Positions 3,395-55,174 of a stretch of 60,438 bases of DNA are shown here, in pieces. A program made the translations under genes and the position numbers. The notes under the pieces are model-generated. The model worked only from the letters and a program-made list of their open reading frames with translations, did no database searches and had not been told where the DNA came from. Numbering within the stretch: the first letter of the stretch is position 1; each line of letters opens with the position of its first letter. Origin of the DNA: Aulosira sp. ZfuVER01 (GTDB lineage Bacteria; Cyanobacteriota; Cyanobacteriia; Cyanobacteriales; Nostocaceae); NCBI GenBank assembly GCA_034530615.2, contig JAVRCV020000027.1, positions 1 to 60,438 on the forward strand, written 5' to 3'.

Positions 3395-3420
3395 TACTGT
3401 AGCTTGATTGATATACCGTA
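3395..3420. promoter_or_regulatory. 26-bp palindromic operator (TAC-N20-GTA)
   Basis: Reverse complement TACGGTATATCAATCAAGCTACAGTA, upstream of the SBP/LLM/thiol dioxygenase unit. Confidence 0.75.
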
Positions 3421-3540
3421 GTTTAGCAAAATCAGCATACCATTTTTTGATAGGCTGCAAAAATTAAGTCAATATTTCTTGATTTCCAAACGAGTTAATT
3501 AAGGCTCAAGAGTATAGTATGTATGCTACGGCTCGAATGA

Positions 3541-4135
3541 CTAGAGTGATTGACTGGCTTCATTAAGCAATGCGATGAAATGATTCACATCCTGAAAGTC
3601 TGCTAAAACAAATTTAGCACCCTCGGAAATTAGAAGCTTTGGGTCGCTTTGGTATGCTACACCAATGAAGGAGTAGCCCAATTTGTAGGAAGTTCTGATA
3701 TCTCAGATTCCATCTCCTAAATAAATTGCCTTTGAGAACTTCTGCTGATAGTGAGTTTCAGCACGGTTAAATAAATGCGATTTGACAGATTTCTTCACGG
3801 GTATAGGCATCATCTGCAAAGGCAGAGGGGATATCTTTATAAGGCAAGCCAGCAGACTTGAGCTTCAATAATGCTGAGTCTGTCCAAGCGCCACCTGCAT
3901 AAGCAACAGCAAAATTGGATTGTGTTCTCAACTGCTTAAGGGCTTCGACTGAACCTGGAATCGGTTTGATTCCACCTATCTCTGTTACAGCAGTTGTAAG
4001 GCGAATCATCAAGTGATTATGAAACCTCTTAACTTCTTGCTCACTGGGAGGATGTCTAAAATTAGACTCATAAATTTCATGTAAAATCCATGAGTCAGTC
4101 ACATGCGTGAAACTAGAGCAATCAGGATTGATAAG
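3541..4135 (-). pseudogene. HAD-superfamily hydrolase, truncated, frameshifted, with internal stop
   Basis: KPIPGSVEALKQL, then after a frameshift IYLGDGI*DIRTSYKLGYSFIGV (motif IV with stop); motif I missing. Confidence 0.65.
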
Positions 4136-4137
4136 AT

Positions 4138-4338
4138 ATTGGTGAAGCCACCGCCCTAGCACTAGCAGCAGAAGGCGCAACAGTAGTGCTGGCTGCTCGC
4201 AGAGGCGATCGCTTAAATGCCCTAGCAGAAAAAATTGCTATCAGTGGAGGCAAAGCATTACGCATTGTTACAGATGTGACAGACGAGACTCAAGTACAGA
4301 ATTTAGTCCCGTAAACCAAGACAGAATTCGGTCAAATA
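4138..4338 (+). pseudogene. Short-chain dehydrogenase fragment
   Basis: IGEATALALAAEGATVVLAARRGDRLNALAEKI...TDVTDETQV with a stop. Confidence 0.75.
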
Positions 4339-4488
4339 ACAAATGGTTCGTGAAATTATCTCATTAATAATCGTATTAATTTCATTTTTTTTGATTTGGT
4401 GGATTACTGACCAAGAGTAGAAACTGTGCCTATTTATTTCTGTGGAGGGGTAACTAGTTTAAAACTCTGTCAATTTAGATAATTAAAT

Positions 4489-4514
4489 TACGGTAATCTC
4501 ATAAGTTTACTGTA
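4489..4514. promoter_or_regulatory. 26-bp palindromic operator (orphaned; target gene apparently deleted)
   Basis: TACGGTAATCTCATAAGTTTACTGTA. Confidence 0.7.
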
Positions 4515-4562
4515 GCTAAGTCGAGATAGCCTTACTATAAATTTTGTACGATCGCATAGCCT

Positions 4563-4979
4563 TTATTTGGCGCTCCGATACTTTTGCAAGCGCTGATTCA
4601 AAGTACCTGTGTGTAATTCAAACAAATAATTATCGTAGTCATAGAAATATAGAGAACGTCATTAGCCTTCGACACGGTTTCTATCTTCTTTGGCATCAAC
4701 TCCCAAACTCTTAACTCTCGCAGCATAGAGTTCGTAGTCCTCTGCGGCTATTTTAAAGGCTACATGGTTATAGGTCTTTTCTGGTGAAGGTTCGCCTTCC
4801 ATAATTGCAATCCATAAGTCATTAATTAGAAGAAATTTTTCTTTAGAGATAGAGAAAATTTGCTCTCCACTCGCATATACTTCTTGAGCATCAAATATGG
4901 TTGTGAGAAATGATGTCATTTTCTCCAAATCTCTGATGATAAATGTAATATGACTGATACCTTGAATCATTTTCCTCAT
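4563..4979 (-). pseudogene. fosX: FosX-family fosfomycin resistance hydrolase with two tandem stops
   Basis: MIQGISHITFIIRDLE...YNHVAFKI...RVEG**RSLYFYDYDNYLFELHTGTLNQRL; TAA TGA at 4659-4664. Confidence 0.85.
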
Positions 4980-5159
4980 ATCCCTAGAGATTTAACTGAT
5001 TTTTGTGTCAACAAAAATTGAAAATCAGCTAAGTCAAATTAAACCTGCCATAGCAGTTAATAACAGCTGAGTTTCAAACACCGATATTTCTATCGTTTTT
5101 CTTGACAATAGCTACCCTAAAACCTTCTAAGTATTTATTTAAGTCCGAATGTTAATTTA

Positions 5160-5339
5160 GGTGCGGGTGCTGGTAGGGTAGACAAAGATACTTCCCTACA
5201 CATTGAAGGATTTTACCAATATAAACTCAACGACAATATTGCAATTACACCAGGGGTAATATGGATCACTGCACCAGACTTTGATGCAAGCAATCCTGAT
5301 ACTGTAATTGGTTGGCTTTGTACCACCTTCAGGTTTTAA
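5160..5339 (+). pseudogene. C-terminal fragment of a cyanobacterial SLH/OprB-type porin
   Basis: DTSLHIEGFYQYKLNDNIAITPGVIWITAP...TTFRF* with the terminal Phe of beta-barrel porins. Confidence 0.75.
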
Positions 5340-5398
5340 CTATAAAAAACTAGCTATTTAGTTTCTAGCCATTCTGCTGGTTAGAAACTAAAGAGAAA

Positions 5399-5755: not shown

Positions 5756-5991
5756 TTGCCATTAGGTTAAGAGGGAACATTTGGAAGAATCTCTATCAAT
5801 ATTTGGGGCTAAATTTCTCTTCTGCTCATCCTCTTTTTTTAGCAAAAATCTTGCTCTCAAGACAGAGTGAATAACGCGATCGCTTTTTCTATGAGAGCGA
5901 AATAGTGTAGTTATCAACACATTTTTTGACTTTTTTTATAAAAATATACTTGCCTTTTTTACCTGCCTATGTGAGACTACTAGAAATAAAC

Positions 5992-6017
5992 TACTAAATA
6001 TCTACCAACTTATAGTA
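5992..6017. promoter_or_regulatory. 26-bp palindromic operator
   Basis: TACTAAATATCTACCAACTTATAGTA, 13 bp after a TTGCCT-17-GAGACT promoter-like element. Confidence 0.55.
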
Positions 6018-6627
6018 TTTTGTAGTTAATGCCTACTCTTATCCTATGAGTTAGACAATACACTGCTTAATCGTTGATTACCCGCCCACTTGTATAGTCA
6101 TTTTGCCTCCGCTAGTGAAGCGTTGCGTAAATCCCTAGTCCTCAGGCGACTAACGTAGCGCTTCCCTTCCCTCAAATAGTTTTAAAAAAAGTTAGTCTTT
6201 ACTACTTAGCAAACTTCAACATACATGGCATAAGGGAAGAGAATTTGTTCCTCTGAAAAAGAGCGACATTTTTCTTCATCCCATTTCCTAACTCCCTTGC
6301 CATCCTAAACTTTACACAGCCATGAATCAAAAATTAACAATATTTTTCAAGCACAATTTTATCTTAGGTTTAGCCCACCTTAATTTTTTAATTCTAAATT
6401 GAGCGTTCGCTATATATATCTATATTTATTTTCTTCAAAACAATATTCTATTACATCAATATCTAATTTTTTATAGTGCTTTTAGCTGAGGCTTAACAAC
6501 ATCGTATGAAATCTAAAATCAGAATCACAAAAATATTTTTAAATACTCTAAATTGTTAGCTTATGGTATTTAAAACTGTCCAATTTGGTTTTTGCCAATC
6601 GTTTCAAAAGCAGAGGTTAAACAATTA

Positions 6628-7752
6628 ATGCAAAATCTGAAAGATAAATTCCAATCTTGGAAACGCGGACGTATTACTCGTCGTTCAGCGCTATTTGGGC
6701 TTGGTTATAGCTTAGTGTTATCGACAACACTATTGAGTTGCAGTACGCCTGATAAAAATACTCAAAAACAAGCAGATTCATCTTCATCTAATACAACTAA
6801 TACAACCAACACAGCTAGTACATCTACAGCTAGTAGCGGTCAAAAACTAATTAGAATTGTACGTTCTAAACAACTGACTGCCTTAGCGGTTCTAGAAAAA
6901 CAAGGCAATTTAGAAAAAAGATTAGCAGACCTTGGTTATAAGCTTGAATGGCCTGAGTTCGCTGCGGGGCCACAACAATTAGAAGCATTAAACGCCAACG
7001 GTCTGGATATTGCTTCCACAGCAGAATCACCCCCTGTTTTTGCTCAATCAGCCGGAACACCTTTAGTATATTTAGCTGCTAATTCTACTGATGGTAAAGC
7101 AGTTTCGCTCTTAGTTCCTAACAACTCGACTGTTAAAAGTATCAAGGACTTGAAAGGTAAAAAAGTTGCTTTCCAAAAAGCATCTATTGGTCATTACTTA
7201 TTAGTCAGAGCTTTAGAAAAAGATGGATTAAAGCTGAGTGATGTACAGTCAGTTTTTCTCCCGCCTCCAGATGCGAATGCAGCATTTAACCAAGGCAAAG
7301 TTGATGCTTGGTTTATCTGGGAGCCATTTGTCACCAGAAATATACAGAATAAAGTTGGTCGTGTTTTGTTAGATGGTGGTGATGGGTTGCGGGATACTAA
7401 CAACTTTTACTCTACAACCCGCAAATTTTATCAAGAAAATCCAGAAGTAATTAAAGTCTTTTTGGAGGAACTACAAAAAGCACAAATTTGGTCTAAACAA
7501 CATCCAAAAGAAATTGCAGAATTACTTGCACCTGTAACACAACTGGATGTACCAACATTAGAAGCTATGCACGGTAAATATGATTTCTCTTTAGAACCAA
7601 TTACCGAGAAAATTATCACCAAGCAACAACAAGTAGCAGATAAATGGTACAGCTTGGGACTGATACCTAAAAAGGTGAATGTCAGAGAAGGGTTTTTGAA
7701 ACCTGAAGATTATACCAAAATTACACCCCAGGATGTTTTAGCTAAACAGTAA
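6628..7752 (+). CDS. ssuA: Aliphatic sulfonate-type ABC substrate-binding lipoprotein
   Basis: EFAAGPQQLEALNANGLD, TAESPPVFAQSAG, DLKGKKVAFQKASIGHY, DAWFIWEPF; lipobox LLSC; ATG at 6628 preferred over TTG at 6592. Confidence 0.85.
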   Translation: MQNLKDKFQSWKRGRITRRSALFGLGYSLVLSTTLLSCSTPDKNTQKQADSSSSNTTNTTNTASTSTASSGQKLIRIVRSKQLTALAVLEKQGNLEKRLADLGYKLEWPEFAAGPQQLEALNANGLDIASTAESPPVFAQSAGTPLVYLAANSTDGKAVSLLVPNNSTVKSIKDLKGKKVAFQKASIGHYLLVRALEKDGLKLSDVQSVFLPPPDANAAFNQGKVDAWFIWEPFVTRNIQNKVGRVLLDGGDGLRDTNNFYSTTRKFYQENPEVIKVFLEELQKAQIWSKQHPKEIAELLAPVTQLDVPTLEAMHGKYDFSLEPITEKIITKQQQVADKWYSLGLIPKKVNVREGFLKPEDYTKITPQDVLAKQ

Positions 7753-7760
7753 CCAGAAGT

Positions 7761-8624
7761 ATGCCCACATTAACATTAACAGAAGTTAAAATTACTCCCT
7801 TAAATGCTCCTCTAGGTGCAGTTGTTACGAGACTCGATGCTAGCCAAGCTGTTGCGCCTGAAGTGATTTTGCAACTTAAACAAGCATTGAAAGATTACCA
7901 TATTCTCATCTTCAAAAATCAACGACTGACTGATGAGCAATTTTTGAATTTTACATTCTACTTTGGCTCGCTATTTGTACCACCGCAAGATATCCCAGTG
8001 TTAGCTTCAGAAACAGGAGTGACACCGGTCATTGTTCCTGTTTCTAATGTTGATGGTGGTTATACGGGTACTGGTGAATTAACTTTCCATTCCGATCACC
8101 ATTGGACTCCCTATCCTTCTAGTAGCTCCTTACTCTATGCTCTAGAAGTGCCTTCTCAAGGTGGAGATACTTCTTGGTTAAATCTGAATTTGGCTTATGA
8201 GGCGCTAGATGAGTTCACCAAGAAACAGATAGCGGACTTGCAGTTGATAACTTACAATCCGTTTGTAAGAGACCGCAACGCACCTCGTTCTAACTACCGT
8301 CTTGATCAAAGTATTCCTCTCATTAGTCCTGTTTTTCCTCATCCTTTGGTACGCACCCATCCAGAAAGCGGTAAAAAGATTTTATATCTCGGACAAGAAA
8401 CAGAAGTAGAAGTTGTTGGTTTAGATCCGCAAGAGGGTGCAGAATTAATTACACAATTGCGCCAGCATCTCAACCAACCACAGTTTTACTACCGACATAA
8501 ATGGTCTGTGGGTGACATTGTTTACTGGGATAATCAAGCGACTTTGCACCACCGACAAGCTTTTGATTCCAATGAACGACGGGTGATGAAGCGCGTAAGT
8601 TTAGCTGGAAGTCGTCCGTTTTAA
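7761..8624 (+). CDS. TauD/TfdA-family Fe(II)/2-oxoglutarate dioxygenase
   Basis: HSD, GGDT, HPLVRTHPESG, WDNQATLHHR. Confidence 0.9.
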   Translation: MPTLTLTEVKITPLNAPLGAVVTRLDASQAVAPEVILQLKQALKDYHILIFKNQRLTDEQFLNFTFYFGSLFVPPQDIPVLASETGVTPVIVPVSNVDGGYTGTGELTFHSDHHWTPYPSSSSLLYALEVPSQGGDTSWLNLNLAYEALDEFTKKQIADLQLITYNPFVRDRNAPRSNYRLDQSIPLISPVFPHPLVRTHPESGKKILYLGQETEVEVVGLDPQEGAELITQLRQHLNQPQFYYRHKWSVGDIVYWDNQATLHHRQAFDSNERRVMKRVSLAGSRPF

Positions 8625-8826
8625 TAGTTAATTTTCTCGACTTCTTGAACGTCAATAAGCTAAGAGTCTTGATGTTTCTGCTCCAAGTAGCAGTTTGGGA
8701 AGATCCACCAAGCTGCTACTTTTCTTCATAATTTCTAGCTATTGTGTCACTAGGAACGGAAATATAGGAGGACAGAGCAACTAATTTTTGGTTCGGAGTT
8801 CTTAATGCCTGATGAGGAGTACAATA

Positions 8827-8852
8827 TACGTTAAGTTTATCGATTTTAAGTA
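8827..8852. promoter_or_regulatory. 26-bp palindromic operator
   Basis: TACGTTAAGTTTATCGATTTTAAGTA, 28 bp before the GTG at 8881. Confidence 0.7.
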
Positions 8853-8880
8853 TTTTTGTAAGATATCGAGAGGAATAGAC

Positions 8881-10332: not shown

Positions 10333-11460
10333 CTATTTTTGGCTGATTGTAGGTGGAGTGATTGCTGCGTACTGTTCAGATGTCAGTGTGGCTTCTTGAA
10401 TATTGATAGGTTTAGGAATCAAGCCATTTTTATGGAAGTAATCTGCAATTCGCTGTTGTTCCCTAATTAAATCTGGAGAAATAGCTCTCAATCCATAAGA
10501 ACGACGGCTAATTACCAAGTCCATCACATCTGGAGGGAGTTTTTGGTACGGTGCGATTAGCTTTGCCGTCTCTTTGGGATTGGCTTCTGCCCAACGCTCA
10601 ATTTTATCTATTTCCTCAATAACTATCCGCAATAATTCCGGATTATCAGTTGCAAATTGCTTTGTCCCAATATAGTATCCACCGGGTGAATCAAGCCCTT
10701 GGGAGTTTTTGAGAATTCTGACTTTACCCAATCTTTCAGCTCGAGCTAGATGAGGATCGCCAGTTACCCAAACGGGTATTTTTCCTTCTAAAAAAGCACT
10801 AGCAGCTTCTACGTTAGGTATGCTCAGGACTTGAATATCACTATATTGTAAACCCGCATCTTCTAAAGCTCTAAGGATGAAATAGTGAGATGCAGAAGCT
10901 TTTTGGAAGACTACTTTTTGCCCTTTAATATCTTTGATACTCTTAATTGGAGAATCTGGAGGAACTGCGATCGCACTTCCTTTACCAGTATTTTCAGTTC
11001 TTCGCCGACCAACAATATAAGCGATCTGAGCACCAGCTGCTTGGGCAAAAATGGGGGGTGTTTCTCCTACTGAACCCAAGTCTATTTTGCCGACATTCAT
11101 CGCTTCCATCAGTTGCGGCCCTTGGGCAAATTGTGCCCATTCCACCTTGACTCCCAAGGGTTCCAAACGCTTTTCTAGTACGTTCGTGATTCTAACTAAA
11201 TCACCAGCTTGTTGATACCCCATCCGGAGTACTTTAGTTTTGATACCCGATGTCTTAGTATCCGATACATTACTAGTCGGAGATTGGCTATCTGCTTTTT
11301 GGCTTTGTTGGGTGCAACTGACTAGCGTCAAAGAAGTTGCTAGAGTTAACAATCCAGGCGCTAAAAGCAGTGTCAAGCGGCGAAAGATATTGATATATGA
11401 AGGTTTAACTGTGGCAACCATAGGTTTTCTGTAAAAAAATTTCAGCTTGTTTGTCGGCAA
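10333..11460 (-). CDS. ssuA: Aliphatic sulfonate-type ABC substrate-binding lipoprotein
   Basis: FAQGPQLMEAMNVGKIDLGSVGETPPIFAQAAG; lipobox LVSC; start may be the ATG near 11421. Confidence 0.85.
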   Translation of the reverse strand: MPTNKLKFFYRKPMVATVKPSYINIFRRLTLLLAPGLLTLATSLTLVSCTQQSQKADSQSPTSNVSDTKTSGIKTKVLRMGYQQAGDLVRITNVLEKRLEPLGVKVEWAQFAQGPQLMEAMNVGKIDLGSVGETPPIFAQAAGAQIAYIVGRRRTENTGKGSAIAVPPDSPIKSIKDIKGQKVVFQKASASHYFILRALEDAGLQYSDIQVLSIPNVEAASAFLEGKIPVWVTGDPHLARAERLGKVRILKNSQGLDSPGGYYIGTKQFATDNPELLRIVIEEIDKIERWAEANPKETAKLIAPYQKLPPDVMDLVISRRSYGLRAISPDLIREQQRIADYFHKNGLIPKPINIQEATLTSEQYAAITPPTISQK

Positions 11461-11662: not shown

Positions 11663-11688
11663 TACGGTTTGTCGATCGGTATATCGAT
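11663..11688. promoter_or_regulatory. 26-bp operator, one deviant arm
   Basis: TACGGTTTGTCGATCGGTATATCGAT, ATC at motif positions 13-15. Confidence 0.5.
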
Positions 11689-12746: not shown

Positions 12747-13457
12747 TTAGAGACAATTTGGCGAGCCAGATAGCTTTGTGGCAGTTGTATAGATAAAATA
12801 ATGCTCTGTTACTTTGACATCAGCTTGAAAACCGACTTGTACCAGTTTATTTTGCAGTTCATCAGGCTGATAAAAAATTTTGACAATTTGAAATTCTTGC
12901 CCATCATTTAACTTACGGCTTTTGTATATACTGCCATCATCATTAAGAATGTGGTTATTAGCTGTAGATGTCGGCTCAAAACGCGAGTCAACAATAAATA
13001 GTTTGCCACCGACACGCACAGATTTATAGACTTTTAGCAAAAATGAGTCAAGTAATTCGGGTGGAACATGAGATAGCCAGAAGGAGAAAAAAACTAGATC
13101 GTATTCAGCATCAGGTTCCCAAGCAAATAAATCAATTTGGTGATATTTTACATGAGGTGAATTTAACTTGCTGCGATTAATTTTGATGACTTCTTCTGAA
13201 GCGTCAATTGCAGTAATTCTCTTGCCAAATTTCAAAAGTTCTTGTGTCCAAATTCCCGTACCACTGGCTAGCTCTAAGATTTCCTCAGCTTGTCCAATTT
13301 GTTGTAAAGCCTGTTTGACAATATCAATTTGTTTGAACCAACGCTGGTTGAGTTCCTCACCGCGATCGTAACGACCAAGGCGATAGAACCACTCATCATA
13401 TTCGTTGGCTCTAGCACTATAATAGGCAATTTGTTGTTGCAGAATGCGATCTGTCAT
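12747..13457 (-). CDS. Class I SAM-dependent methyltransferase
   Basis: ILELASGTGIWT, AIDAS, YDLVFFSFWLSHVP; start at MTDRIL. Confidence 0.85.
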   Translation of the reverse strand: MTDRILQQQIAYYSARANEYDEWFYRLGRYDRGEELNQRWFKQIDIVKQALQQIGQAEEILELASGTGIWTQELLKFGKRITAIDASEEVIKINRSKLNSPHVKYHQIDLFAWEPDAEYDLVFFSFWLSHVPPELLDSFLLKVYKSVRVGGKLFIVDSRFEPTSTANNHILNDDGSIYKSRKLNDGQEFQIVKIFYQPDELQNKLVQVGFQADVKVTEHYFIYTTATKLSGSPNCL

Positions 13458-13507
13458 TGCCAGCCGATCGTCCGATCTGATCAATTCCTGATAAATTTTA
13501 ACTTATT

Positions 13508-13533
13508 TACTGTATCTTGATAAATATACAGTA
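13508..13533. promoter_or_regulatory. 26-bp palindromic operator
   Basis: Reverse complement TACTGTATATTTATCAAGATACAGTA, upstream of methyltransferase-folE. Confidence 0.75.
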
Positions 13534-13642: not shown

Positions 13643-13668
13643 TACGGTTAACAAATCGATTTACTGCA
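13643..13668. promoter_or_regulatory. 26-bp palindromic operator
   Basis: TACGGTTAACAAATCGATTTACTGCA, upstream of the ssuA-flavoprotein operon. Confidence 0.7.
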
Positions 13669-13687: not shown

Positions 13688-14788
13688 GTGTTTACCATTA
13701 AAAGCAGAGTATTTATGTTGTCCAAGTTTTTTCAATCTCGATTCTTAAACATTTTGCTCGGCTTTCTCCAAAGGTTTCAGCAACGAAGAATTCGCATGTT
13801 TCTGCTACTGTTTGCCGCCGGACTCGGCTTAGTTCTATTTGTTTCGGCTTGTTCTTCAAACACGAGCGATCGCGCAGCAACAACGCAGGCAGCAGCTACA
13901 CCTACTCAGAGTGCCGCAGCCAGCAGTACTGTGGTTCGGATCGGCTTTCAGAAAGCGGGAACTATTTTAAGTGCATTGAAAGCAAGAGGAGACTTAGAAA
14001 AAGCTTTGGCTTCCTCTGGTGCTTCTGTCACCTGGGCTGAATTTCCATCAGGCCCCCCAATGTTAGAGGCTATTAACGCCGGCAGTATAGACTTTGGCTA
14101 CACCGGAGAATCACCGCCAATATTTGCCCAAGCTGCAGGTACGCCTTTAGTATATGTTGCCTACGATCCTTGGAGTCCGAAGGCGGAAGCTATCGTCGTT
14201 CACAAAGATTCACCTATTAAAACAGTGGCCGACCTCAAAGGTAAAAAAGTCGCCTTCGCTAAAGGTTCCAACACTAACTACTTGGTAGTGAAAGCCCTGG
14301 AAAAAGCCGGACTAAAGTATAACGACATCCAGGCAACTCTTCTCCAGCCTGCGGATGCGCGTGCTGCTTTTGAAGGTAAGAACGTTGATGCTTGGGCAAT
14401 TTGGGACCCCTACTTAGCTTTAGCAGAGAAAGCAACAGGGGCACGTACCCTAACCGATGCTACAGGATTAGCCCCCAATCGTGGTTATTATCTGGCGGCT
14501 AAGTCTTTTAGCGAAGCCCATGCAGATACTTTAAAAATAGTTCTAGATGAAGTAAAAAAGACTAGCGATTGGGCAAAGAATAATCCTGCTGAAGTTGCGA
14601 AATTTCTCTCGCCTGCATTGGGTATTGATGCTGACGTTTTAGAAGTAGCAGAAAAGCGGCGCGATTATGGTGTACTTCCCCTTACTGATGAAGTGATTGC
14701 TGGACAGCAACAGATAGCCGACGCTTTTTACAAAATCAAACTTGTGCCGAAACAAATTAATGTCAAAGACATAGTTTGGCGTAATTAG
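13688..14788 (+). CDS. ssuA: Aliphatic sulfonate-type ABC substrate-binding lipoprotein
   Basis: VRIGFQK, EFPSGPPMLEAINAGSIDFGYTGESPPIFAQAAG, DAWAIWDPY; lipobox VSAC; exact start uncertain. Confidence 0.9.
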   Translation: MFTIKSRVFMLSKFFQSRFLNILLGFLQRFQQRRIRMFLLLFAAGLGLVLFVSACSSNTSDRAATTQAAATPTQSAAASSTVVRIGFQKAGTILSALKARGDLEKALASSGASVTWAEFPSGPPMLEAINAGSIDFGYTGESPPIFAQAAGTPLVYVAYDPWSPKAEAIVVHKDSPIKTVADLKGKKVAFAKGSNTNYLVVKALEKAGLKYNDIQATLLQPADARAAFEGKNVDAWAIWDPYLALAEKATGARTLTDATGLAPNRGYYLAAKSFSEAHADTLKIVLDEVKKTSDWAKNNPAEVAKFLSPALGIDADVLEVAEKRRDYGVLPLTDEVIAGQQQIADAFYKIKLVPKQINVKDIVWRN

Positions 14789-14863: not shown

Positions 14864-16573
14864 ATGGAAACAACAACCCAATGGATAAAAACCGATGTGT
14901 TAGTGATTGGCGGTGGTACAGCGGGGACGATGGCGGGAATTAAGGCGAAACAGGCTAATCCAGCGGCACAAGTGCTGATTCTGGAGAAGGCTAATATTCG
15001 TCGCAGTGGTGCGATCGCAATGGGAATGGATGGTGTAAATACAGCAGTCATCCCTGGATACTCTACGCCAGAACAGTACGTCCGCGAAGTCACCATTGCT
15101 AACGATGGTATTCTCCATCAAAAAGCCGTCTATCAAACCGCAAAGCTAGGCTACGAAACCATTCAAGAACTCGAAAGTTGGGGTGTTAAGTTCCAAAAAG
15201 ACCCCCAAGGAAATTACGATGTGAAGCAAGTGCATCGGGTAGGCAAATATGTATTGCCAATGCCCGAAGGTAAAGATCTGAAAACCATTCTTACCAGACA
15301 GGTAAAGCGCCATAAAGTCAATGTCACCAACCGCGTCATGGCGACGAGGGTTTTAGTAAAAGAAGGAAGAGCGATCGGTGCAGTTGGGCTTGATGTGCGT
15401 GGTGGTGATTTTGTTGTTATCCAAGCCAAAGCCGTCATTCTTTGTACAGGCGCTTGCGGACGGTTGGGATTACCTGCATCAGGCTATCTCTACGGCACTT
15501 ATGAAAATCCCACTAATGCCGGTGATGGTTACTCAATGGCTTACCACGCAGGTGCAGAATTGAGTAATATCGAATGCTTTCAAATTAACCCCTTAATTAA
15601 AGACTACAACGGCCCGGCTTGTGCATATGTTGCCGGGCCTTTTGGTGCATATACCGCCAACGCAGAAGGACACCGCTTCATTAATTGTGATTATTGGAGT
15701 GGTCAAATGATGCTAGAGATTTGGAAAGAATTGAACTCTGGTAAAGGGCCAATTCAGTTGAAAATGACGCATTTAGATGAAGATACTATTTCCGAAATTG
15801 AGTCTATTTTATGGTCAAACGAACGACCCAGCCGAGGACGCTTCCATGAAGGTAGAGGCGAAGACTACCGCACCCACGGTATTGAAATGAATATCTCAGA
15901 AATTGGCTTATGTAGCGGACATAGTGCTTCTGGTGTTTGGGTGAATGAAAAAGCAGAAACCACAGTACCAGGATTGTATGCAGCTGGAGATATGGCAAGT
16001 GTTCCTCATAACTATATGATTGGGGTATTTGTATTTGGTCGTTTGGCAGGAACTCATGCAGTTGAGTACATCCAAGATGTGGAACATTTAGAACCCGATC
16101 CAGATTTTCTAGCAGCAGAAAAAGCGAGGATTTATGCACCATTGAGTCAGCCGAATAGGATTCCTCATACTCAGGTTGAATATAAGTTACGGCGATTAGT
16201 AAACGACTACTTACAACCACCAAAATCAAATTACAAAATGGAGATTGGGCTGAAAAGTTTTGTCCGCTATCATGATACTTTGGCACAAATGGGAGCGCGC
16301 GATCCTCACGAACTTATGCGCTGTATAGAAGTGCATTTTATTAGAGATTGTGCAGAGATGGCTGCACGAGCATCAATATATCGACGAGAAAGTCGCTGGG
16401 GACTTTATCATTATCATTTAGATTTTCCGGAAAAGAATAATCAAGAGTGGTTTTGTCATGTGAATTTGAAAAAGAATGAAGTAGGGGAAATGGTGTTATT
16501 TAAGCGTCCTGTTGAACCTTATATTGTGGAGGTTGATTTAGGAACAGAGGTTTATGATGTAGCGGTGAGATAA
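14864..16573 (+). CDS. Fumarate reductase/APS reductase-family flavoprotein subunit
   Basis: DVLVIGGGTAG FAD motif, RSGAIAMGMDG, TTVPGLYAAGD, RRESRWG. Confidence 0.85.
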   Translation: METTTQWIKTDVLVIGGGTAGTMAGIKAKQANPAAQVLILEKANIRRSGAIAMGMDGVNTAVIPGYSTPEQYVREVTIANDGILHQKAVYQTAKLGYETIQELESWGVKFQKDPQGNYDVKQVHRVGKYVLPMPEGKDLKTILTRQVKRHKVNVTNRVMATRVLVKEGRAIGAVGLDVRGGDFVVIQAKAVILCTGACGRLGLPASGYLYGTYENPTNAGDGYSMAYHAGAELSNIECFQINPLIKDYNGPACAYVAGPFGAYTANAEGHRFINCDYWSGQMMLEIWKELNSGKGPIQLKMTHLDEDTISEIESILWSNERPSRGRFHEGRGEDYRTHGIEMNISEIGLCSGHSASGVWVNEKAETTVPGLYAAGDMASVPHNYMIGVFVFGRLAGTHAVEYIQDVEHLEPDPDFLAAEKARIYAPLSQPNRIPHTQVEYKLRRLVNDYLQPPKSNYKMEIGLKSFVRYHDTLAQMGARDPHELMRCIEVHFIRDCAEMAARASIYRRESRWGLYHYHLDFPEKNNQEWFCHVNLKKNEVGEMVLFKRPVEPYIVEVDLGTEVYDVAVR

Positions 16574-23369: not shown

Positions 23370-23395
23370 TTCGGTAAGTTTGTGTAGAAACCGAA
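23370..23395. promoter_or_regulatory. Possible variant 26-bp operator (or hairpin)
   Basis: TTCGGTAAGTTTGTGTAGAAACCGAA, same length and GGT/ACC arms but TTC/GAA ends. Confidence 0.3.
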
Positions 23396-24983: not shown

Positions 24984-26357
24984 TCATGTAGCAATACCAG
25001 CTAGTTCAGGGGATGCAACTTTGCTGAACTGGTTAACCGGACGAGGTAAACCAAGATTTTCCCGCAGAGTCCGCCCTTCGTACTCAGTGCGGAATATACC
25101 TCGGCGTTGCAGTTCGGGAATGACAAACTCTACAAACTCATCTAAACCACCAGGCAACCAAGGTGGCATGATATTAAAACCGTCAGCGCCATCGTTAATA
25201 AACCAGTCTTCTAGCTGGTCGGCAATCTGCTCTGGTGTACCGATAATGGTGCGATGTCCGCGTGCGCCAGCAATCCATAAATATAGTTGCCGGATGGTTA
25301 AATTCTCTCTATGGGCAAGGTCTTTAATTAGTTGTAAACGGCTTTTGCCACCGTTGGTATCTGGCAGATCTGGTAGCGGCCCGTCTAAGGGATATTTCGT
25401 TAAATCATGCCCACCTATAAGACTTGAAAGCAGACCCAATCCCACTGACGGATGAATTAAATCCTGAAGTTGCTCGTATTTCTCCTTGGCTTCTTCCTCT
25501 GTTCTACCAATCACCGGAAATACACCAGGCATAATTTTGAGATGTTCGGGGGAACGCCCGTATTTAACTAGTCTGCCCTTAACACTGGAATAAAAAGCCT
25601 GTGCTTCTTTTAGAGTTTGTTGAGCAGTAAAAATGACCTCTGCTGTTTGGGCGGCGAGTTCTTGACCTGCTTCGGAAGAACCAGCTTGCACAATCACCGG
25701 ATACCCTTGGATAGGACGGGCGACATTCAACGGCCCGCGTACCGAGAAATTTTTACCCTTGTGGTTAGGAATGTGTAGTTTGTCAGGATGGAAGTAAACG
25801 CCTGATTCTTTATCGCGGATAAAGGCATCATCTTCCCAACTATCCCAAAGCTTGGTGACAACTTCTAAAAGTTCTGTTGCTCTCTCGTAGCGCAGTGCGT
25901 GTTCTAAATGGTGTTCCCGGCTGAAGTTTTTTGCTGCGGCTTCAGCAGAGGATGTGACAACATTCCACCCAGCACGACCACCACTAAGATAATCTAACGA
26001 AGCAAACTTACGGGCGAGGTGAAAGGGTTCGTCGTATGTGGTTGATGCCGTTGCTACTAACCCGATGCGCTCTGTCACTACAGACAAAGCCGACAATAAA
26101 GTTAGTGGTTCAAAGTGGACGCTGAATTGTCCCGAACGGCTAAAAGCCTCTTTCCCTTGTCCCCGATCCCAGACAGCTAAACCATCTGCGAGGAAAACCA
26201 TGTCAAATTTAGCTCGTTCAGCTGTCTGTGCCAGTCGCTTGTAATGCTGAAAATTCAGTCCTCCGTCTGCTTGGGCTTGGGGATGTCGCCAAGCTGCTAC
26301 ATGATGACCTGCATCTGGGAGAAATGCACCTAGTTTTAGTTGTTTTTTCTGACTCAT
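24984..26357 (-). CDS. NtaA/DszA/SoxA-family FMNH2-dependent monooxygenase
   Basis: AERAKFDMVFLAD, FEPLTLLSAL, GRAGWNVVTS, QAGSSEAG, TLRENLGL. Confidence 0.9.
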   Translation of the reverse strand: MSQKKQLKLGAFLPDAGHHVAAWRHPQAQADGGLNFQHYKRLAQTAERAKFDMVFLADGLAVWDRGQGKEAFSRSGQFSVHFEPLTLLSALSVVTERIGLVATASTTYDEPFHLARKFASLDYLSGGRAGWNVVTSSAEAAAKNFSREHHLEHALRYERATELLEVVTKLWDSWEDDAFIRDKESGVYFHPDKLHIPNHKGKNFSVRGPLNVARPIQGYPVIVQAGSSEAGQELAAQTAEVIFTAQQTLKEAQAFYSSVKGRLVKYGRSPEHLKIMPGVFPVIGRTEEEAKEKYEQLQDLIHPSVGLGLLSSLIGGHDLTKYPLDGPLPDLPDTNGGKSRLQLIKDLAHRENLTIRQLYLWIAGARGHRTIIGTPEQIADQLEDWFINDGADGFNIMPPWLPGGLDEFVEFVIPELQRRGIFRTEYEGRTLRENLGLPRPVNQFSKVASPELAGIAT

Positions 26358-26473: not shown

Positions 26474-26494
26474 CATGCCCAATGCCCCATGCCC
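26474..26494. repeat. STRR-type heptamer repeat (CCCCATG/CCCAATG)
   Basis: CATGCCCAATGCCCCATGCCC; similar tracts near 41608-41645 and 57760-57855. Confidence 0.6.
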
Positions 26495-27415: not shown

Positions 27416-27441
27416 TACGGTAAATTGATAAAGTTTAAGTA
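27416..27441. promoter_or_regulatory. 26-bp palindromic operator
   Basis: TACGGTAAATTGATAAAGTTTAAGTA, upstream of the SDR-monooxygenase operon. Confidence 0.75.
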
Positions 27442-27923: not shown

Positions 27924-27949
27924 TACTCTTTGTCGGTCAACTTACCGCT
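27924..27949. promoter_or_regulatory. 26-bp operator, one deviant arm
   Basis: TACTCTTTGTCGGTCAACTTACCGCT. Confidence 0.4.
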
Positions 27950-29962: not shown

Positions 29963-29988
29963 TACGGTAAATACGTCAAATTACCGTA
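29963..29988. promoter_or_regulatory. 26-bp palindromic operator (best symmetry)
   Basis: TACGGTAA-ATACGTCAAA-TTACCGTA with perfect 8-bp arms. Confidence 0.8.
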
Positions 29989-30064: not shown

Positions 30065-30090
30065 TACGATAAACCTATCGAATTAGTGTA
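30065..30090. promoter_or_regulatory. 26-bp palindromic operator
   Basis: TACGATAAACCTATCGAATTAGTGTA, 5 bp before the ATG at 30096. Confidence 0.7.
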
Positions 30091-31174: not shown

Positions 31175-31200
31175 TACTGTAAGTCAATAGGTTTAATTGA
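31175..31200. promoter_or_regulatory. 26-bp operator, one deviant arm
   Basis: TACTGTAAGTCAATAGGTTTAATTGA. Confidence 0.45.
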
Positions 31201-36637: not shown

Positions 36638-37299
36638 AGGAAGTTTGGGAAAAATTAAACCATACACTACGTGGTCAGGTTCGCGCAAAATTAGGTAAAT
36701 CAACACAACCAACTGCGATAAGCCTAACGGCATAGCTTCGCTTACCGCAGCAGATAGCCAGTCGGTAAAAACGACCCAAAAAAGGGAGCCAGCGCGTTGC
36801 GGGGGTTCCCCCCGTTGTAGCGACTGGCGTGGGATGTGTACGGGTTTGATGGGGGTAAGCTAGTCAAAGGAAGGAAACGCTCCTCAATCGTTGATAGCCT
36901 TGGGCTATTGCTCAAAGTGCTTGTGAGTGAAGGCAATGCCCCTGAAAGAGTGCTTGCAGCGTATGCTTTGATGGAACTGGTGGAGGAACGCCCAGAATTA
37001 TTGGAAAAAGTTGAAGTCATTTGGGTTGACTCGGGGTACGACGGCGATAAGTTTGCGCGCTTCGGTTTGGCTGATGATCCAAGCTCATGTTGAGGTCATA
37101 CGCCGTACTGATAAAGATTTTGAAGTTTTACCTAAGCGTTGGGTAGTAGAAAGAACATTCGGTTGGTTTAACCAGTACCATCGTTTGAGTAAGGATTATG
37201 AACGTCTTCCGGAGATGAACGAAGCTGCCATATATGCTGTTATGACTCGTATTATGTTACGTCTAGCCGTCTAAAGATTTGCTTTATAAACAGTCTCTA
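36638..37299 (+). mobile_element. Truncated IS5-family element, transposase pseudogene with two small-repeat insertions
   Basis: [53 protein letters not shown]; inserts at 36720-36745 and about 36786-36830. Confidence 0.85.
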
Positions 37300-41183: not shown

Positions 41184-41209
41184 TCCTTTAAATTGATAGA
41201 ATAACAGTA
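41184..41209. promoter_or_regulatory. 26-bp operator
   Basis: Reverse complement TACTGTTATTCTATCAATTTAAAGGA, upstream of nitroreductase-OMT-monooxygenase. Confidence 0.65.
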
Positions 41210-43838: not shown

Positions 43839-44540
43839 ATGGAAGAATTAATTACCGCAATCCCTACAGGGATAACAGCTTTTACAGCAACTAATCTTGA
43901 TGATTTAGTAATTTTGTCGCTTTGGTTTTCACAAGTAAATAACAATTTTCGTTCGCGGCATATTGTTATTGGTCAGTTCCTCGGATTTAGTATTTTAGTA
44001 ATTACCAGCCTTACTGGTTTTTTAGGTGGTTTAATCTTACCAAAACACTTGATTGGGCTACTTGGATTAGTTCCCATAGCAATTGGTCTTAGTAGTTGGC
44101 TCAATCAAGAAAGCGGCGATTCAGATGCAGAAGATGAACAATTACAGCACTCTGAAACTTCTCCTTTTGCCAGTTTCCTTTCACCACAAACTTATAGTGT
44201 GGCTGCAATTACTGTCGCCAATGGTAGTGATAATATAAGTATCTATATGCCATTGTTTGCTAATAGCAGTCTTATAAAACTACTAATAATTCTCGTCATC
44301 TTCTTTTTGCTTGTAGGAGTTTGGTGCTATGCCAGCTACAAACTAATTAGCCAAAACAATATTGCTGATATCCTTAATCGTTACGGTAGTAATCTTGTGC
44401 CCTTTGTTTTGGTTGGATTAGGAGTATATATCATTTTGGAAAGTGGCGCGTTGAATCCACTCGCTTTAGTAGCCAGTTGCATCTGCCTCATGGTTATAGT
44501 CAAAAAATATAAACCTAGGGCAGAAGTCGAAGATAACTAA
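43839..44540 (+). CDS. CadD-family (cadmium resistance) transporter
   Basis: FTATNLDDL, IVIGQFLG, ITVANGSDNISIYMPLF. Confidence 0.85.
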   Translation: MEELITAIPTGITAFTATNLDDLVILSLWFSQVNNNFRSRHIVIGQFLGFSILVITSLTGFLGGLILPKHLIGLLGLVPIAIGLSSWLNQESGDSDAEDEQLQHSETSPFASFLSPQTYSVAAITVANGSDNISIYMPLFANSSLIKLLIILVIFFLLVGVWCYASYKLISQNNIADILNRYGSNLVPFVLVGLGVYIILESGALNPLALVASCICLMVIVKKYKPRAEVEDN

Positions 44541-47003: not shown

Positions 47004-47006
47004 TCA

Positions 47007-48090: not shown

Positions 48091-48154
48091 ATATTTTATA
48101 AGCGAGAATGGTGAGCCAGCACTGGGGGAAGCGCTACGTTGGATTATTATATAA

Positions 48155-48180
48155 TACGGTAAATCTATCAAGATACTGTA
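48155..48180. promoter_or_regulatory. 26-bp palindromic operator overlapping TATAAT
   Basis: ATAA-TACGGTAAATCTATCAAGATACTGTA-TTAT; TATAAT at 48150-48155. Confidence 0.8.
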
Positions 48181-48287
48181 TTATAAATTGAGTAGCGATC
48201 GCTTCCCTTGATGGCTTGCACTTGATGGCAACACCAAGGAAGTACACGAGCGCGAACACCCCCCAGGCAAAACTCTGGAAAATTTAT

Positions 48288-49250
48288 ATGAGCAACAAGC
48301 ACATTGAAGTTCAACAGGTAGCTGGTTTCATCGGTGCCGAAATCAGTGGCGTAGACCTTTCCCGTCCTCTGCACGATGAAGCAGTTGCCGAAATTCGTCA
48401 AGCACTGTTGAAGTGGAAAGTTATTTTCTTTCGCGGTCAGAACATCGATCATGCTGCACAGATTGCCTTCACATCTCGTTTTGGCGAAGTGACTTATGCC
48501 CATCCCCACGAGGATGAACCAATCGAAGGCTTTTCAGAAATACTGCCGATTGACCGCAGCCGCTACGAACGGAAGAATGGTCTCCGTCGTTCCAGCTACG
48601 AGAGCCGTTGGCACACTGATGTAACAGCAGTTGTTAACCCACCGGCGGGATCTATTTTGCGCGCAGTTAACGTCCCTAGTTTTGGTGGCGATACACAGTG
48701 GACTAATCTGGTCGCAGCTTACGAGGGTCTATCAGCACCTCTGCGGGCGCTAGCAGACACATTGAAGGCAGAACATCGCTTCAATGCTCGGTTGCGTTTA
48801 CCCAGCAACAGCAAGCTTGTTGAGCGCATTGCAGCCAATCCCCAGGTGTCTATTCACCCAGTGGTGCGGGTTCATCCAGAGACAGGCGAACGTGCATTGT
48901 TCGTGAATCCTGGTTTCACCTCCCACATTCTTGATGTGTCACCACAAGAAAGCGACTTACTACTAGAGTTGTTCTTCAATCAAATCACCAAGCCCGCCTA
49001 TACTACCCGTTTCCGCTGGAACAACGGTGACATTGCATTCTGGGATAACCGCGCCACCGCACATTTAGCTCCGCAGGATCTAGAGCATATAGAAGTCGAG
49101 CGCGTACTCTATCGCACCACCATTACTGGTGATGTTCCAGTCGGCCCCGATGGTTTCCGATCGCAAGTAGTTGAAGGTGAACCTTTAACTAGTGAATTAC
49201 CAACTGTCTTGAAGAAGAAAGCCGAGCAGCGAGAACCCGTGCTTTCATAA
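48288..49250 (+). CDS. TauD/AtsK-family dioxygenase
   Basis: WHTD, GGDTQW, HPVVRVHPETG, WDNRATAH. Confidence 0.9.
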   Translation: MSNKHIEVQQVAGFIGAEISGVDLSRPLHDEAVAEIRQALLKWKVIFFRGQNIDHAAQIAFTSRFGEVTYAHPHEDEPIEGFSEILPIDRSRYERKNGLRRSSYESRWHTDVTAVVNPPAGSILRAVNVPSFGGDTQWTNLVAAYEGLSAPLRALADTLKAEHRFNARLRLPSNSKLVERIAANPQVSIHPVVRVHPETGERALFVNPGFTSHILDVSPQESDLLLELFFNQITKPAYTTRFRWNNGDIAFWDNRATAHLAPQDLEHIEVERVLYRTTITGDVPVGPDGFRSQVVEGEPLTSELPTVLKKKAEQREPVLS

Positions 49251-49299: not shown

Positions 49300-49337
49300 T
49301 CTGATAGCAAGAGCAAATGACAAATGACTAATGACCA

Positions 49338-52674: not shown

Positions 52675-52745
52675 TTTTGGTGTATTTTCTCGTGTTTCAA
52701 TTCGGATTGCTACATATAGATTAAATCTTAAAAAGAGGAAACTTC

Positions 52746-53603
52746 ATGTCAGAGAAGTCTGATTTGCAAAACCTACTTTTAGATGAAGTACTAGCTCATT
52801 ATGAGCGTGGTCTGGAAGCCGAACGCTTATCAAAGCGGACAAATCCGATTGAACTTGTTCGCACCCAAGAGCTTCTTAGCCGCTACTTACCTCCTCCCCC
52901 TGCAGTGATTTTTGATGTTGGCGGCGGTTCAGGTATCTATGCTTGTTGGCTTGCCCAACAAGGGTATAAAGTTCATCTTATTGATGCCGTTCCTTTGCAT
53001 GTAGAGCAAGCCCGCTCTGCTTCTCAGGCTCAACCTGATTATCCACTTGTAAGTGCAGAAGTTGGAGATGCCCGTCAATTAAATCAAGCAAACAACAGCG
53101 TTGATGCTGTTCTCTTATTTGGACCACTGTATCACTTAATTGAACGTAGCGATCGCCTGGTAGTGTTACGCGAGGCAGATCGTGTCTTAAAGAGCGGAGG
53201 TCTTGTCTTTGCCGTTGCTTGTTCTCGCTTTGCTTCGCTCTTAGACGGTTTATTTCGGGGATGGCTAGACGATCCGGAGTTTGTGGAAATTGCCCATCGG
53301 GACTTGCTTGAAGGGCAACATCGTAATCCAAACAACCATCCTGCTTACTTTACGACAGCATTCTTTCATCATCCTGATGAACTAAAGGCAGAGGTGGAAG
53401 AAGCAGGGTTATCTTGTCATAAGCTCTTAGCCATAGAAGGACCAGGCAAATTACTACAAAATTTTGAGGAACATTGGAGTGAACCAAGTCGCCGCCAAAG
53501 ACTCCTGCAAGCCATTCGCTGGCTGGAGGCTGAACCTTCTACGCTAGGTGTAAGTGCTCACATTATGGCTATTGGTAAAAAAGTAGCAGTCTCAAGTCAG
53601 TAA
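52746..53603 (+). CDS. Class I SAM-dependent methyltransferase
   Basis: FDVGGGSG, GDAR, LFGPLYHL. Confidence 0.85.
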   Translation: MSEKSDLQNLLLDEVLAHYERGLEAERLSKRTNPIELVRTQELLSRYLPPPPAVIFDVGGGSGIYACWLAQQGYKVHLIDAVPLHVEQARSASQAQPDYPLVSAEVGDARQLNQANNSVDAVLLFGPLYHLIERSDRLVVLREADRVLKSGGLVFAVACSRFASLLDGLFRGWLDDPEFVEIAHRDLLEGQHRNPNNHPAYFTTAFFHHPDELKAEVEEAGLSCHKLLAIEGPGKLLQNFEEHWSEPSRRQRLLQAIRWLEAEPSTLGVSAHIMAIGKKVAVSSQ

Positions 53604-53627
53604 AGCAAGGTCGCAAAAGAACAATAC

Positions 53628-54272
53628 ATGAAACATCTTTGTGTAATTTTTGATTTGGATGGAACGTTAGTTGACAGTGAGAGGCTTTGTAATCAAGCAT
53701 TTATCGATCTGCTACCTTTTATCACTGAGTCAGTTGAAAGTCTGATTCTTAGATATCGTGGCAGAAAGCTAGCTTTAATTTTAGCGGATATAGAAATAAG
53801 ATATGGCGAAAAGCTGCCGATATATTTTGAAGCAACATATCGTCAAAGGGTGAATGAATTATTTGAATTTTATTTGCAGCCAGTAACAGGTGTTCCAGAA
53901 ATGCTCAAAACTCTGGAATATCCTGTTTGTATTGCCTCAAGTGCGCCCATAGCAAAAATTCGCCAGGCTCTAGATGTCACAAATCTATCGCATTACTTTG
54001 GCGATCGCTTGTTTAGTTCTTATGAGATAGGCTCGTGGAAACCTGAACCAGGTTTATTCTTATATGCAGCTAATAAGATGGGATTCCCGCTCGAATCTTG
54101 TGTTGTTATAGAGGATAGCGATGTAGGAATTCAAGCCGCACATTTAGCCGGAATCTATGCTTTAAAATATTCCATTGAGGAGACAGCAGATACACAAAAT
54201 AATGTGTTTTATAATATGAAATATCTGGGAAAACATCTCGATAAAATTTATGCGTTGAAATGCGATCGCTGA
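53628..54272 (+). CDS. HAD IA hydrolase (YieH-like)
   Basis: FDLDGTLVDSE, WKPEPG, VIEDS. Confidence 0.85.
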   Translation: MKHLCVIFDLDGTLVDSERLCNQAFIDLLPFITESVESLILRYRGRKLALILADIEIRYGEKLPIYFEATYRQRVNELFEFYLQPVTGVPEMLKTLEYPVCIASSAPIAKIRQALDVTNLSHYFGDRLFSSYEIGSWKPEPGLFLYAANKMGFPLESCVVIEDSDVGIQAAHLAGIYALKYSIEETADTQNNVFYNMKYLGKHLDKIYALKCDR

Positions 54273-54365
54273 TAACTAGCGAAGAATATGTAATAAGTTT
54301 ATGACTTTTGGTGGCACAACAAAGTGTAATATCAAGTTTAGGTGATTACTTATAAAGCTATCAAT

Positions 54366-54444
54366 GTAGGTTGGGCTGAACAGTAGTGAAATTCAACATG
54401 AATATAGATAGGGGTGTTGGGTTTCGTTCCTCAACCCAATCTAC
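54366..54444. repeat. Inverted pair of GTAG-type REP-like elements
   Basis: GTAGGTTGGGCTGA...CAACA / TGTTGGGTTTCGTTCCTCAACCCAATCTAC. Confidence 0.55.
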
Positions 54445-54649
54445 AAACTGCAATGTAACTTAATACTTAAAGCCTTTAATTTTCGAGTTTAATAAAAAAT
54501 TGCAAATCTTATTGTTAATTTTGTTATTAACGAATGATTGAAGATTGCTATATAGGAGAAAATAATTTCAGAAATATTTACACTTAGGGCAAATTTCAAC
54601 CGTGAGTCAAGTATTTTTATACGCCGAGTATCAAGTGTCTATCCCCTTC

Positions 54650-55007
54650 AGTGAAATTGATTGGATTTCAATCAATGTGGAAATGAAAAAATTTTGACGC
54701 TATTTTTTGTATTAATATTTTCCAGGTTGCACCAATATCTCTTGCAGATGGAATGATGAATTGTGCAGTTAATTATCTTAGCGATCGCGGCTCTCTATTT
54801 ATCTATGGGCCATTTAAGGTTGATGGCAGCTATACAACACCCTCAAATGAAGAATTCGATACTACTCTTCTCTCCTATAAAGTGCCGACATGGAAGCTAA
54901 AGGATATTGTAGACCTTAATAAGGCAGCACAGAAGTATGGGTTGACTCTGAAAGAAAAAGTCGATATGCCATCTCATAATTTCACTCTGATCTACAGTTT
55001 GAGATGA
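54650..55007 (+). pseudogene. C-terminal fragment of DUF938 methyltransferase-like protein
   Basis: FDAIFCINIFQ, IYGPFKVDG, SNEEFD, MPSHN. Confidence 0.7.
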
Positions 55008-55101
55008 AATTTTTCGGTCATGCTCAATTAAGGGATGATTTTGCAACTGATAAAATTCTCCCCCTGCTTCCCCTGCCTGATGGTGGCAGCCAACAAGGTT
55101 C

Positions 55102-55174
55102 TTGACTTATTTTTGCTTAAGAGGTAACTTATCAATATTGTAATTAAATACGGTAAATCTATCAAGATAAAGTA
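55102..55174 (+). promoter_or_regulatory. Sigma70-type promoter followed by 26-bp operator (55149-55174)
   Basis: TTGACT-17 bp-TAACTT, then TACGGTAAATCTATCAAGATAAAGTA. Confidence 0.75.

Follow-up and report, generated by a model that had tools for sequence, protein, structure and literature searches.

In the CymR system of sulfur control, CymR is the DNA binder, CysK the stabiliser and O-acetylserine the signal (PMC2940859, excerpt). CysK also holds CysE, whose C-terminal isoleucine is anchored in the CysK active site, where O-acetylserine competes with it; isoleucine tails of this kind are also carried by CdiA, EGL-9 and B. subtilis CymR (PMC12895370, excerpt). Both excerpts are consistent in placing the sensing step of the CymR system at CysK with O-acetylserine. 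The subject here is a palindromic DNA box that recurs along contig JAVRCV020000027.1 of the cyanobacterium Aulosira sp. ZfuVER01, the whole of which (C27; 60,438 bp) is called the window; it belongs to an assembly of 8.03 Mb in 83 contigs, which carries the genome label G000. The box is real: it is an intergenic palindrome that occurs across the class and stands ahead of sulfur genes. With somewhat better than even confidence, it is taken to be the putative operator of the sulfur-acquisition genes, read by a CymR-like Rrf2 repressor with sensing through CysK and O-acetylserine.

The cyanobacterial system resembles the CymR type in several ways. Its putative repressor has the Rrf2 winged helix and lacks the iron–sulfur (Fe-S) cysteine triad, and a C-terminus of the form ..M[YF]YI is common to the cyanobacterial proteins and the Firmicute Rrf2 proteins 4cic and 3lwf. 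In addition, the gene is linked to cysK, the putative targets are sulfur and cysteine genes, and the geometry is that of a repressor. The consensus of the CymR box itself is not printed in PMC2869319 or PMC13689551. The differences are that the proteins come from another phylum, that the CymR score is 92.9 against a cut-off of 195 bits, and that the predicted regulon is by far the larger of the two, with many organosulfur genes (ssu, tau, sulfatase and sfnB-like). There are also two or three Rrf2 paralogues here, one of which has its own boxes, and a partner gene of the CRP family.

Similar kinds of genes are controlled in proteobacteria by CysB and Cbl, LysR-family proteins with cysPTWA, ssu, tau and cysK as targets and with O-acetylserine-derived signalling. 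The genes that flank the box are of these same kinds, but CysB and Cbl are activators of another family and use another site architecture. Within the cyanobacteria, CysR of Synechococcus elongatus PCC 7942 is a CRP/FNR protein tied to sulfate transport and sulfur-starvation genes, and the CRP-family protein considered below is likened to it by family and context; its homologue in genome G043 adjoins a cysA-like gene. Unlike CysR, the protein here resembles a target of the box and not its reader. The portions of the CysR literature examined make no mention of its W[YH]Y[EQ]I tail and print no CysR binding site. At the level of DNA, the nearest likeness is to the operators of IscR, NsrR and RsrR, inverted repeats of at least 23 bp covered end to end by one dimer; in the NsrR–DNA structure, the Rrf2 dimer spans 23 bp, its helices making contact near ±5 to 8 and its wings lying at either end (PMC9338935, excerpt). 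Those proteins sense via Fe-S clusters and their sites are unrelated in sequence, whereas the box here is conserved over 36 bp. Neither a cyanobacterial operator of this form nor a cyanobacterial CymR–CysK system was found in open full text (subscription papers, RegPrecise and supplements lay outside the search), in line with an earlier, sequence-only reading of the window, which had recognised no described cyanobacterial site of this form.

The box is an intergenic palindrome ahead of sulfur genes

The pattern TAC-N20-GTA occurs 26 times in the window, compared with 9.06 ± 2.98 (maximum 18) in 100 shuffled versions, none of which reached 26. When spacings from N10 to N30 were compared in the window, enrichment was found at N20 alone. 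About 11 of the 26 matches are due to chance, and the real sites have a common inner pattern. The consensus over 36 nucleotides (nt) is TAAAcTACGgTAAaTctATCgA.TTAcaGTAgTTta, which is palindromic over its full length with one degenerate central position (TCKA/TMGA). Aligned boxes contain GTA-N12-TAC in addition to TAC-N20-GTA, and conservation spans 26–36 bp, the centre included. Spacings of 12 and 20 bp between the GTA and TAC triplets, compared with 8 in the NtcA site, bear out the view that this is not an NtcA site.

A 36-nt matrix was built by aligning the clear sites and was then iterated over the whole genome. It gave 59 sites scoring at least 20, and as the next best match scored only 16.6, the scores fall into two groups. 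At the threshold of 20, the reversed genome gave 3 sites and two local shuffles gave 1 each; at 24, the real genome retained 50 sites and all three controls gave 0. To avoid circularity, the matrix was retrained on 44 sites, all of them outside the window, and this version recovered 15 window sites with scores of 21.8–36.8, plus a weak extra site at 5080 (15.8).

The sequence-only reading had listed ten exact TAC-N20-GTA sites and seven weaker ones. The ten exact sites are all present at the positions it gave and, among the weaker ones, those at 11663, 13643, 27924, 31175 and 41184 were recovered by the outside-trained matrix; those at 23370 (score below 12) and 41885 (12.4, the level of noise) fell away. 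In all, 15 of the 17 were recovered, and the boxes at 48155 and 55149 are indeed identical at 24 of 26 positions.

Crude gene calls put 81% of the genome in coding sequence, yet 56 of the 59 genome sites fall between genes. Two of the three exceptions are start-codon miscalls. One is the box at 8827, which falls inside the longest open reading frame (ORF), 29 nt ahead of a GTG at 8881 preceded by AGGA; the other is a site on contig C49, where the box lies 7 nt ahead of the real start of a CRP-family gene. By the gene calls, 14 of the 15 window sites are intergenic, and 8827 is the one that depends on the choice of start.

The genes beside the boxes are those of sulfur acquisition. Genome-wide, they span sbpA/cysTWA, ssuABCDE, tauD, cysK, cysE and sulfatase/FGE, and the matrix scan accordingly places sites beside sbpA/cysTWA, ssuABC and cysK, as had been expected of it. 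Proteins with a low sulfur content are a known mark of sulfur starvation, a topic for which PMC2940859 lists references. Here, the median content of cysteine plus methionine is 1.82% in 87 proteins encoded downstream of boxes and 2.49% in 5358 others (Mann–Whitney p = 6e-4).

Spread of the box across cyanobacteria

Counting the plain pattern over 61 genomes was dropped, as a backwards control gave similar numbers. Because such counts were too noisy, a sequence-only covariance model, R1, was built from 54 sites. At E ≤ 0.1, R1 matched all 36 relatives from the same family and 15 of 24 relatives from other families of the order. In an even sample of the order, 60 of 151 genomes had a match (E ≤ 0.005), as did 38 of 151 in an even sample of the class (E ≤ 0.001). 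In distant genomes, the boxes precede cysA, ssuA/ssuD, sfnG, cysK, cysH, sbpA and tauD. The boxes of G199, which lie beside non-sulfur genes, and the G287 box, before an AIG2-like gene, were left out as unclear in context.

In one genome, G017, nearly all boxes lie on a single 25-kb contig (C36; loci L085, L099 and L100) together with ssuC, porin, TauD and monooxygenase genes, and none is near its Rrf2 or CRP homologues. This contig may be a transferred sulfur island.

Placement of the box relative to genes and promoters

The position of the box bears on whether it serves repression or activation. In 22 of 23 loci with orthologues of the Rrf2 gene on contig C56, the right arm of the box, GTAGTATA, abuts the start codon, be it ATG, TTG or GTG. 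The 13-residue N-terminal extension that follows this box is conserved as protein across the 23 loci, with synonymous changes. A transcription start at least 41.5 nt past the box centre would lie within the coding sequence, so that the box of the Rrf2 gene cannot be an activator site.

The box that lies 5 bp from the ATG at 30096 in the window, as the sequence-only reading had it, keeps its offset (−31 to −35) in 6 of 30 homologue loci, namely the window's own and those of five other genomes. Among the remaining loci, 7 of the 30 have a box 225–250 nt upstream and 17 have none. Two promoter-like elements that had been noted are also present, both as consensus matches only: TTGACT-17-TAACTT at 55102–55130 and a TATAAT at 48150–48155 that overlaps the box.

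Across 90 site-direction pairs, no −10 hexamer was found at a fixed distance downstream of the boxes, which speaks against class II activation; in these pairs, TAnnnT hexamers are located within the box arms. Boxes lie at or beside start codons and −10-like hexamers, and these positions fit repression.

Candidate regulators of the box

None of the window's ORFs has a DNA-binding domain, which agrees with the proposal that the regulator is encoded elsewhere. In G000, a box stands upstream of three regulator genes: those of an Rrf2 and a LysR-type protein, both on C56, and that of a CRP/FNR-family protein on C49. The Rrf2 gene lies in an operon with cysK, is divergent from cysE and has its own boxes. 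It is one of three Rrf2 paralogues, the others being on C80, where cysK also follows, and on C73. For one regulator, the nearest named homologue is a Nostoc protein of 91% identity. Homologues of the CRP protein are also present in Nostoc punctiforme and Anabaena PCC 7120. As percent identity alone failed to separate orthologues from paralogues, they were distinguished by own-gene boxes, neighbouring genes and C-terminal tails.

The Rrf2 protein P0001 matches the winged-helix model TIGR00738 at 107.4 bits (cut-off 73.3), and Pfam Rrf2 matches the paralogues. In NCBIfam, the best specific match of the Rrf2 proteins is CymR, below its cut-off. The box abuts the gene in 27 of 28 Rrf2 orthologue loci. 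Furthermore, an invariant recognition helix (IP[DE]RYLEQ.L..LRR) and wing (S.RG..GG) are shared by all 11 aligned cyanobacterial Rrf2 proteins, the three G000 paralogues included, and such constant DNA-binding residues match an operator that is unchanged across the sampled orders. Rrf2 is favoured as the binder because of the repressor geometry, the end-to-end plan of the site, the invariant DNA-binding residues and the dissociation between genomes that is set out below. The proposal of a trans-encoded, dimeric repressor of organosulfur genes is supported by the predicted set of sulfur genes genome-wide, by the box positions and by the box-bearing Rrf2 and CysR-like genes on other contigs.

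The alternative that survives best, although unlikely, is that the box is the site of the CysR-like CRP/FNR regulator, which would act on itself and on sulfur genes with the Rrf2 genes only as targets. Of 30 CRP-gene loci, 28 have a box immediately before the gene, as do G048, G050, G055 and G056, and the helix-turn-helix GSTRVTITR resembles that of NtcA, which recognises GTA/TAC. The known CRP and NtcA site plans consist of two 5-bp half-sites 6 bp apart or of GTA-N8-TAC, within 14–22 bp, and the triplet spacings of the box follow neither plan. Boxes that touch start codons are also unlike an activator site, and the −10 box expected at class II distance was not found. In S. elongatus, CysR controls sulfur genes, with a regulon structure called undefined (PMC11420160, excerpt).

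Co-occurrence separates the two candidates further, with the provision that related genomes within the samples are not independent. Among the motif-positive genomes, Rrf2 is present in 59 of 60 in the order and 37 of 38 in the class, and a CRP homologue (threshold 1e-30) in 51 and 32, respectively; the latter counts also speak for the CRP protein as binder, but 9 of the 60 and 6 of the 38 have no such homologue. Six genomes without it, from four families (G049 and G170 of f14, G073 of f38, G290 and G315 of f53, G210 of f64), nonetheless have high-scoring boxes directly upstream of sbpA, cysH, tauD or sfnB-like genes. Conversely, G167 and G184 hold the CRP protein, with its tail, and have no Rrf2; the box is absent from the 3.5-kb locus around the CRP gene in both, and over the whole genome there is no match in G167 and a single weak site in G184. 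The CysR-like protein therefore looks like a putative member of the regulon, not its binder.

Several findings weigh against Rrf2 as the reader of the box. The CRP-family gene, as noted, has a box upstream as well, and in many families it is linked to the second Rrf2 copy. The co-occurrence counts make the case look stronger than it is, since related genomes are not independent of one another and Rrf2 proteins are widespread (in 98 of 151 genomes of the order and 124 of 151 of the class); Rrf2 also occurs in 39 of the order's 91 motif-negative genomes. In G043, both regulators are present with no detectable box, and a box is also missing at the single Rrf2–cysK operon of G040, G049, G050 and G056 and at the single Rrf2 gene of G048. 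G282, which is 76% complete, has boxes and no Rrf2 match, and in G191 the sole Rrf2 match (C1:3159701-3160134) is split and contains stop codons, with three box matches remaining. Finally, P0001 reaches 92.9 bits, well under the 195-bit cut-off of the NCBIfam CymR equivalog NF047409, and cysK-linked paralogues of other genomes, with E values of 1e-31 to 4e-32, are still under that cut-off.

A second alternative is that both regulators act on one composite box, with Rrf2 repressing, the CysR-like protein competing or replacing it in starvation, and CysK gating both tails. In families f1, f9, f19, f32 and f36, the two genes adjoin and a box lies beside or between them; both proteins have an aromatic-x-Ile C-terminus, and a single palindromic motif is enriched in the box-bearing regions; a search for a second motif in 43 such intergenic regions with the boxes masked gave AT-rich noise only. 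This arrangement is nevertheless quite improbable, given that genomes without the CRP protein still keep the box and that a CRP dimer on such spacing is without structural precedent. Equally doubtful is a different binder, be it the LysR-type protein (G000 C56:53291-54265) or a factor not yet seen. A box at C56 54276 is directly upstream of the LysR gene, and in G056 a box separates cysK from a divergent LysR gene of the same NCBIfam type. The usual LysR site, however, consists of T-N11-A dyads in a pair of recognition and activation sites, and the box is one palindrome of 26–36 bp. That the palindromes are merely a dispersed repeat without regulatory role is scarcely credible: they are AT-rich, palindromic and clustered in islands, as in G017 with its single 25-kb contig, but their conservation is position-specific although the sequence varies, their offsets to orthologous starts are fixed across genera, and their neighbour genes are functionally coherent across the sampled orders.

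In many draft genomes, the Rrf2 paralogue linked to cysK (G000 C80:3322-3765, with many relatives) lies ~3.3–3.7 kb from the end of its contig, which suggests that its position beside an assembly-breaking repeat, possibly an rRNA operon, is conserved.

CysK and the C-terminal tails

The preferred reading, a CymR-like Rrf2 repressor, includes a means of sensing. cysK follows the Rrf2 gene on C56 and C80 of G000 and in other genomes, among them G040, G049, G050, G055 and G056. The Fe-S cysteine triad of Rrf2 proteins is lacking, as P0001 has one cysteine and an alignment of 11 proteins shows no conserved triad. All 11 of these proteins end in MYYI; of the solved Firmicute Rrf2 proteins, 4cic ends in MYYI and 3lwf in MFYI. 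On the side of CysK, the TSGNT loop and Q147 are kept in 12 aligned cyanobacterial proteins and would map onto the peptide-contact residues named in the excerpt of PMC12895370. From the missing Fe-S triad, the best match to CymR, the cysK linkage, the MYYI tail and the CymR/CysK literature, we infer a CymR–CysK-like switch.

In this switch, a dimeric Rrf2 repressor of the CymR kind, with its genes on other contigs, would occupy the box. With sulfur plentiful, the repressor, likely on DNA in complex with CysK via the invariant MYYI tail, would shut the promoters. When sulfur is short, O-acetylserine would push the tail out of the CysK active site, thereby releasing the regulon. The genes released would include the second Rrf2–cysK copy and the CysR-like CRP-family regulator.

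The CysR-like protein has a tail of its own. In G000 its gene lies outside the window at C49:263538-264125 (locus L009:2538-3125), and the C-terminus W[YH]Y[EQ]I is present in 6 of 6 box-linked orthologues and 120 of 120 database homologues; it is absent in 4 of 4 CRP paralogues of ~50% identity. By its sequence, this tail looks like a putative peptide for docking into the CysK active site. In addition, CysE-like proteins encoded in two of the CRP-gene loci end in DGAGI. With Rrf2, CRP and CysE, three kinds of protein in these loci have a candidate CysK-docking tail. It is conceivable, though offered only tentatively, that CysK is the single cyanobacterial sulfur sensor, gating Rrf2 (MYYI) and CRP (W[YH]Y[EQ]I) through their tails as it does CysE (DGAGI, two loci), with O-acetylserine freeing all three; the box would then be the repressor operator in a class-wide, two-tier sulfur-starvation cascade.

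Sites and genes in the window and beyond

The 15 boxes of the window are collected in Table 1. From its predicted genes, the window is an organosulfur island: it encodes two TauD proteins, three SsuA-like binding proteins, two luciferase-like monooxygenases, a sulfatase with FGE, and TauE. Also present are two succinate-dehydrogenase/APS-reductase-like flavoproteins, one of which is followed by a ferredoxin, and many methyltransferases, GNATs and HAD hydrolases.

Table 1. Boxes of the window with their neighbouring genes. Score A, genome-iterated matrix; score B, matrix trained outside the window; strands in brackets.
Box	Position relative to genes	Score A	Score B	Remark
3395..3420	between ORF 2162-2809(-) and ORF 3767-4180(-)	38.1	34.7	
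4489..4514	upstream of ORF 3767-4180(-)	28.7	25.7	
5992..6017	upstream of SsuA-like binding protein 6592-7752(+) and TauD 7761-8624(+)	34.4	34.2	Pfam
8827..8852	upstream of aminotransferase, likely start GTG 8881	31.1	29.5	sequence
11663..11688	upstream of SsuA-like gene 10333-11460(-)	25.7	23.8	
13508..13533	upstream of methyltransferase 12747-13484(-) and GTP cyclohydrolase I	32.5	30.6	
13643..13668	upstream of SsuA-like gene 13688-14788(+) and FAD protein 14864-16573(+)	27.8	25.5	
27416..27441	upstream of SDR 26494-27294(-) and luciferase-like monooxygenase 24984-26357(-)	33.3	31.5	
27924..27949	upstream of nitroreductase 28252-29073(+)	27.4	25.8	
29963..29988	upstream of dienelactone hydrolase 29147-29902(-)	30.1	27.7	
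30065..30090	5 bp from ATG of Blh-phosphatase-like gene 30096-30545(+)	35.4		offset kept in homologue loci
31175..31200	upstream of MgtC-family gene 30575-31102(-)	24.8	21.8	
41184..41209	upstream of leftward unit 40751-37586 (O-methyltransferase, luciferase-like monooxygenase, methyltransferase)	32.9	31.7	
48155..48180	overlaps TATAAT; upstream of TauD 48216-49250(+) and genes through 54272	38.9	36.8	
55149..55174	just downstream of TTGACT-17-TAACTT; upstream of FGE 55326, sulfatase 55780 and SBF 57862	32.9	29.7	sequence

Outside the window, the boxes cluster on contigs C56, C35, C54, C55, C47, C3, C49, C33, C75 and C34. Their neighbours there are three sbpA genes with cysTW, two cysA, ssuD/ssuE, ssuC/ssuB, a porin gene, TauD and SfnB/DszC-like genes, together with glutathione S-transferases, CadD-like transporters, a sulfatase, cysK and cysE.

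Some further observations concern single sites and genes. The 36-mers at window 5987-6022 and G000 C55:102265-102300 are identical, each with its box centre 587.5 nt before an SsuA-like gene, and C55 stops 15 bases beyond that gene; the region either was duplicated recently or is an assembly repeat at the end of a contig. Downstream of the box at 3395, the ORF at 2162-2809 weakly matches PCO_ADO, a thiol dioxygenase family, at a sub-threshold E of 0.006. A fragment of a DDE transposase (PF13586, 2.5e-20) lies within the sulfur island at window 37011-37274. Genes of the CadD family (PF03596) recur beside boxes, one in the window (43839-44540) and five outside it, with sites on C56, C35 and C54 of G000 among them. 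In G184 (L110), a CadD-family gene directly follows the CysR-like gene, and in G167 an ORF with the same ends occupies that position. The cargo of the box-linked transporters may be a sulfur compound and not cadmium.

Implications for sulfur control in cyanobacteria

Sulfur control in cyanobacteria is poorly mapped. The box provides a sequence handle by which a sulfur-starvation regulon can be predicted from the genome alone, as in 60 of 151 genomes sampled from the order and 38 of 151 from the class. In this genome, the predicted regulon comprises ~59 sites and some 90 genes. Testable regulators, and a candidate sensing route through CysK and O-acetylserine, can now be named. In addition, the box flags unnamed genes as putatively sulfur-scavenging, and these include CadD-like transporters, methyltransferases and luciferase-like monooxygenases.

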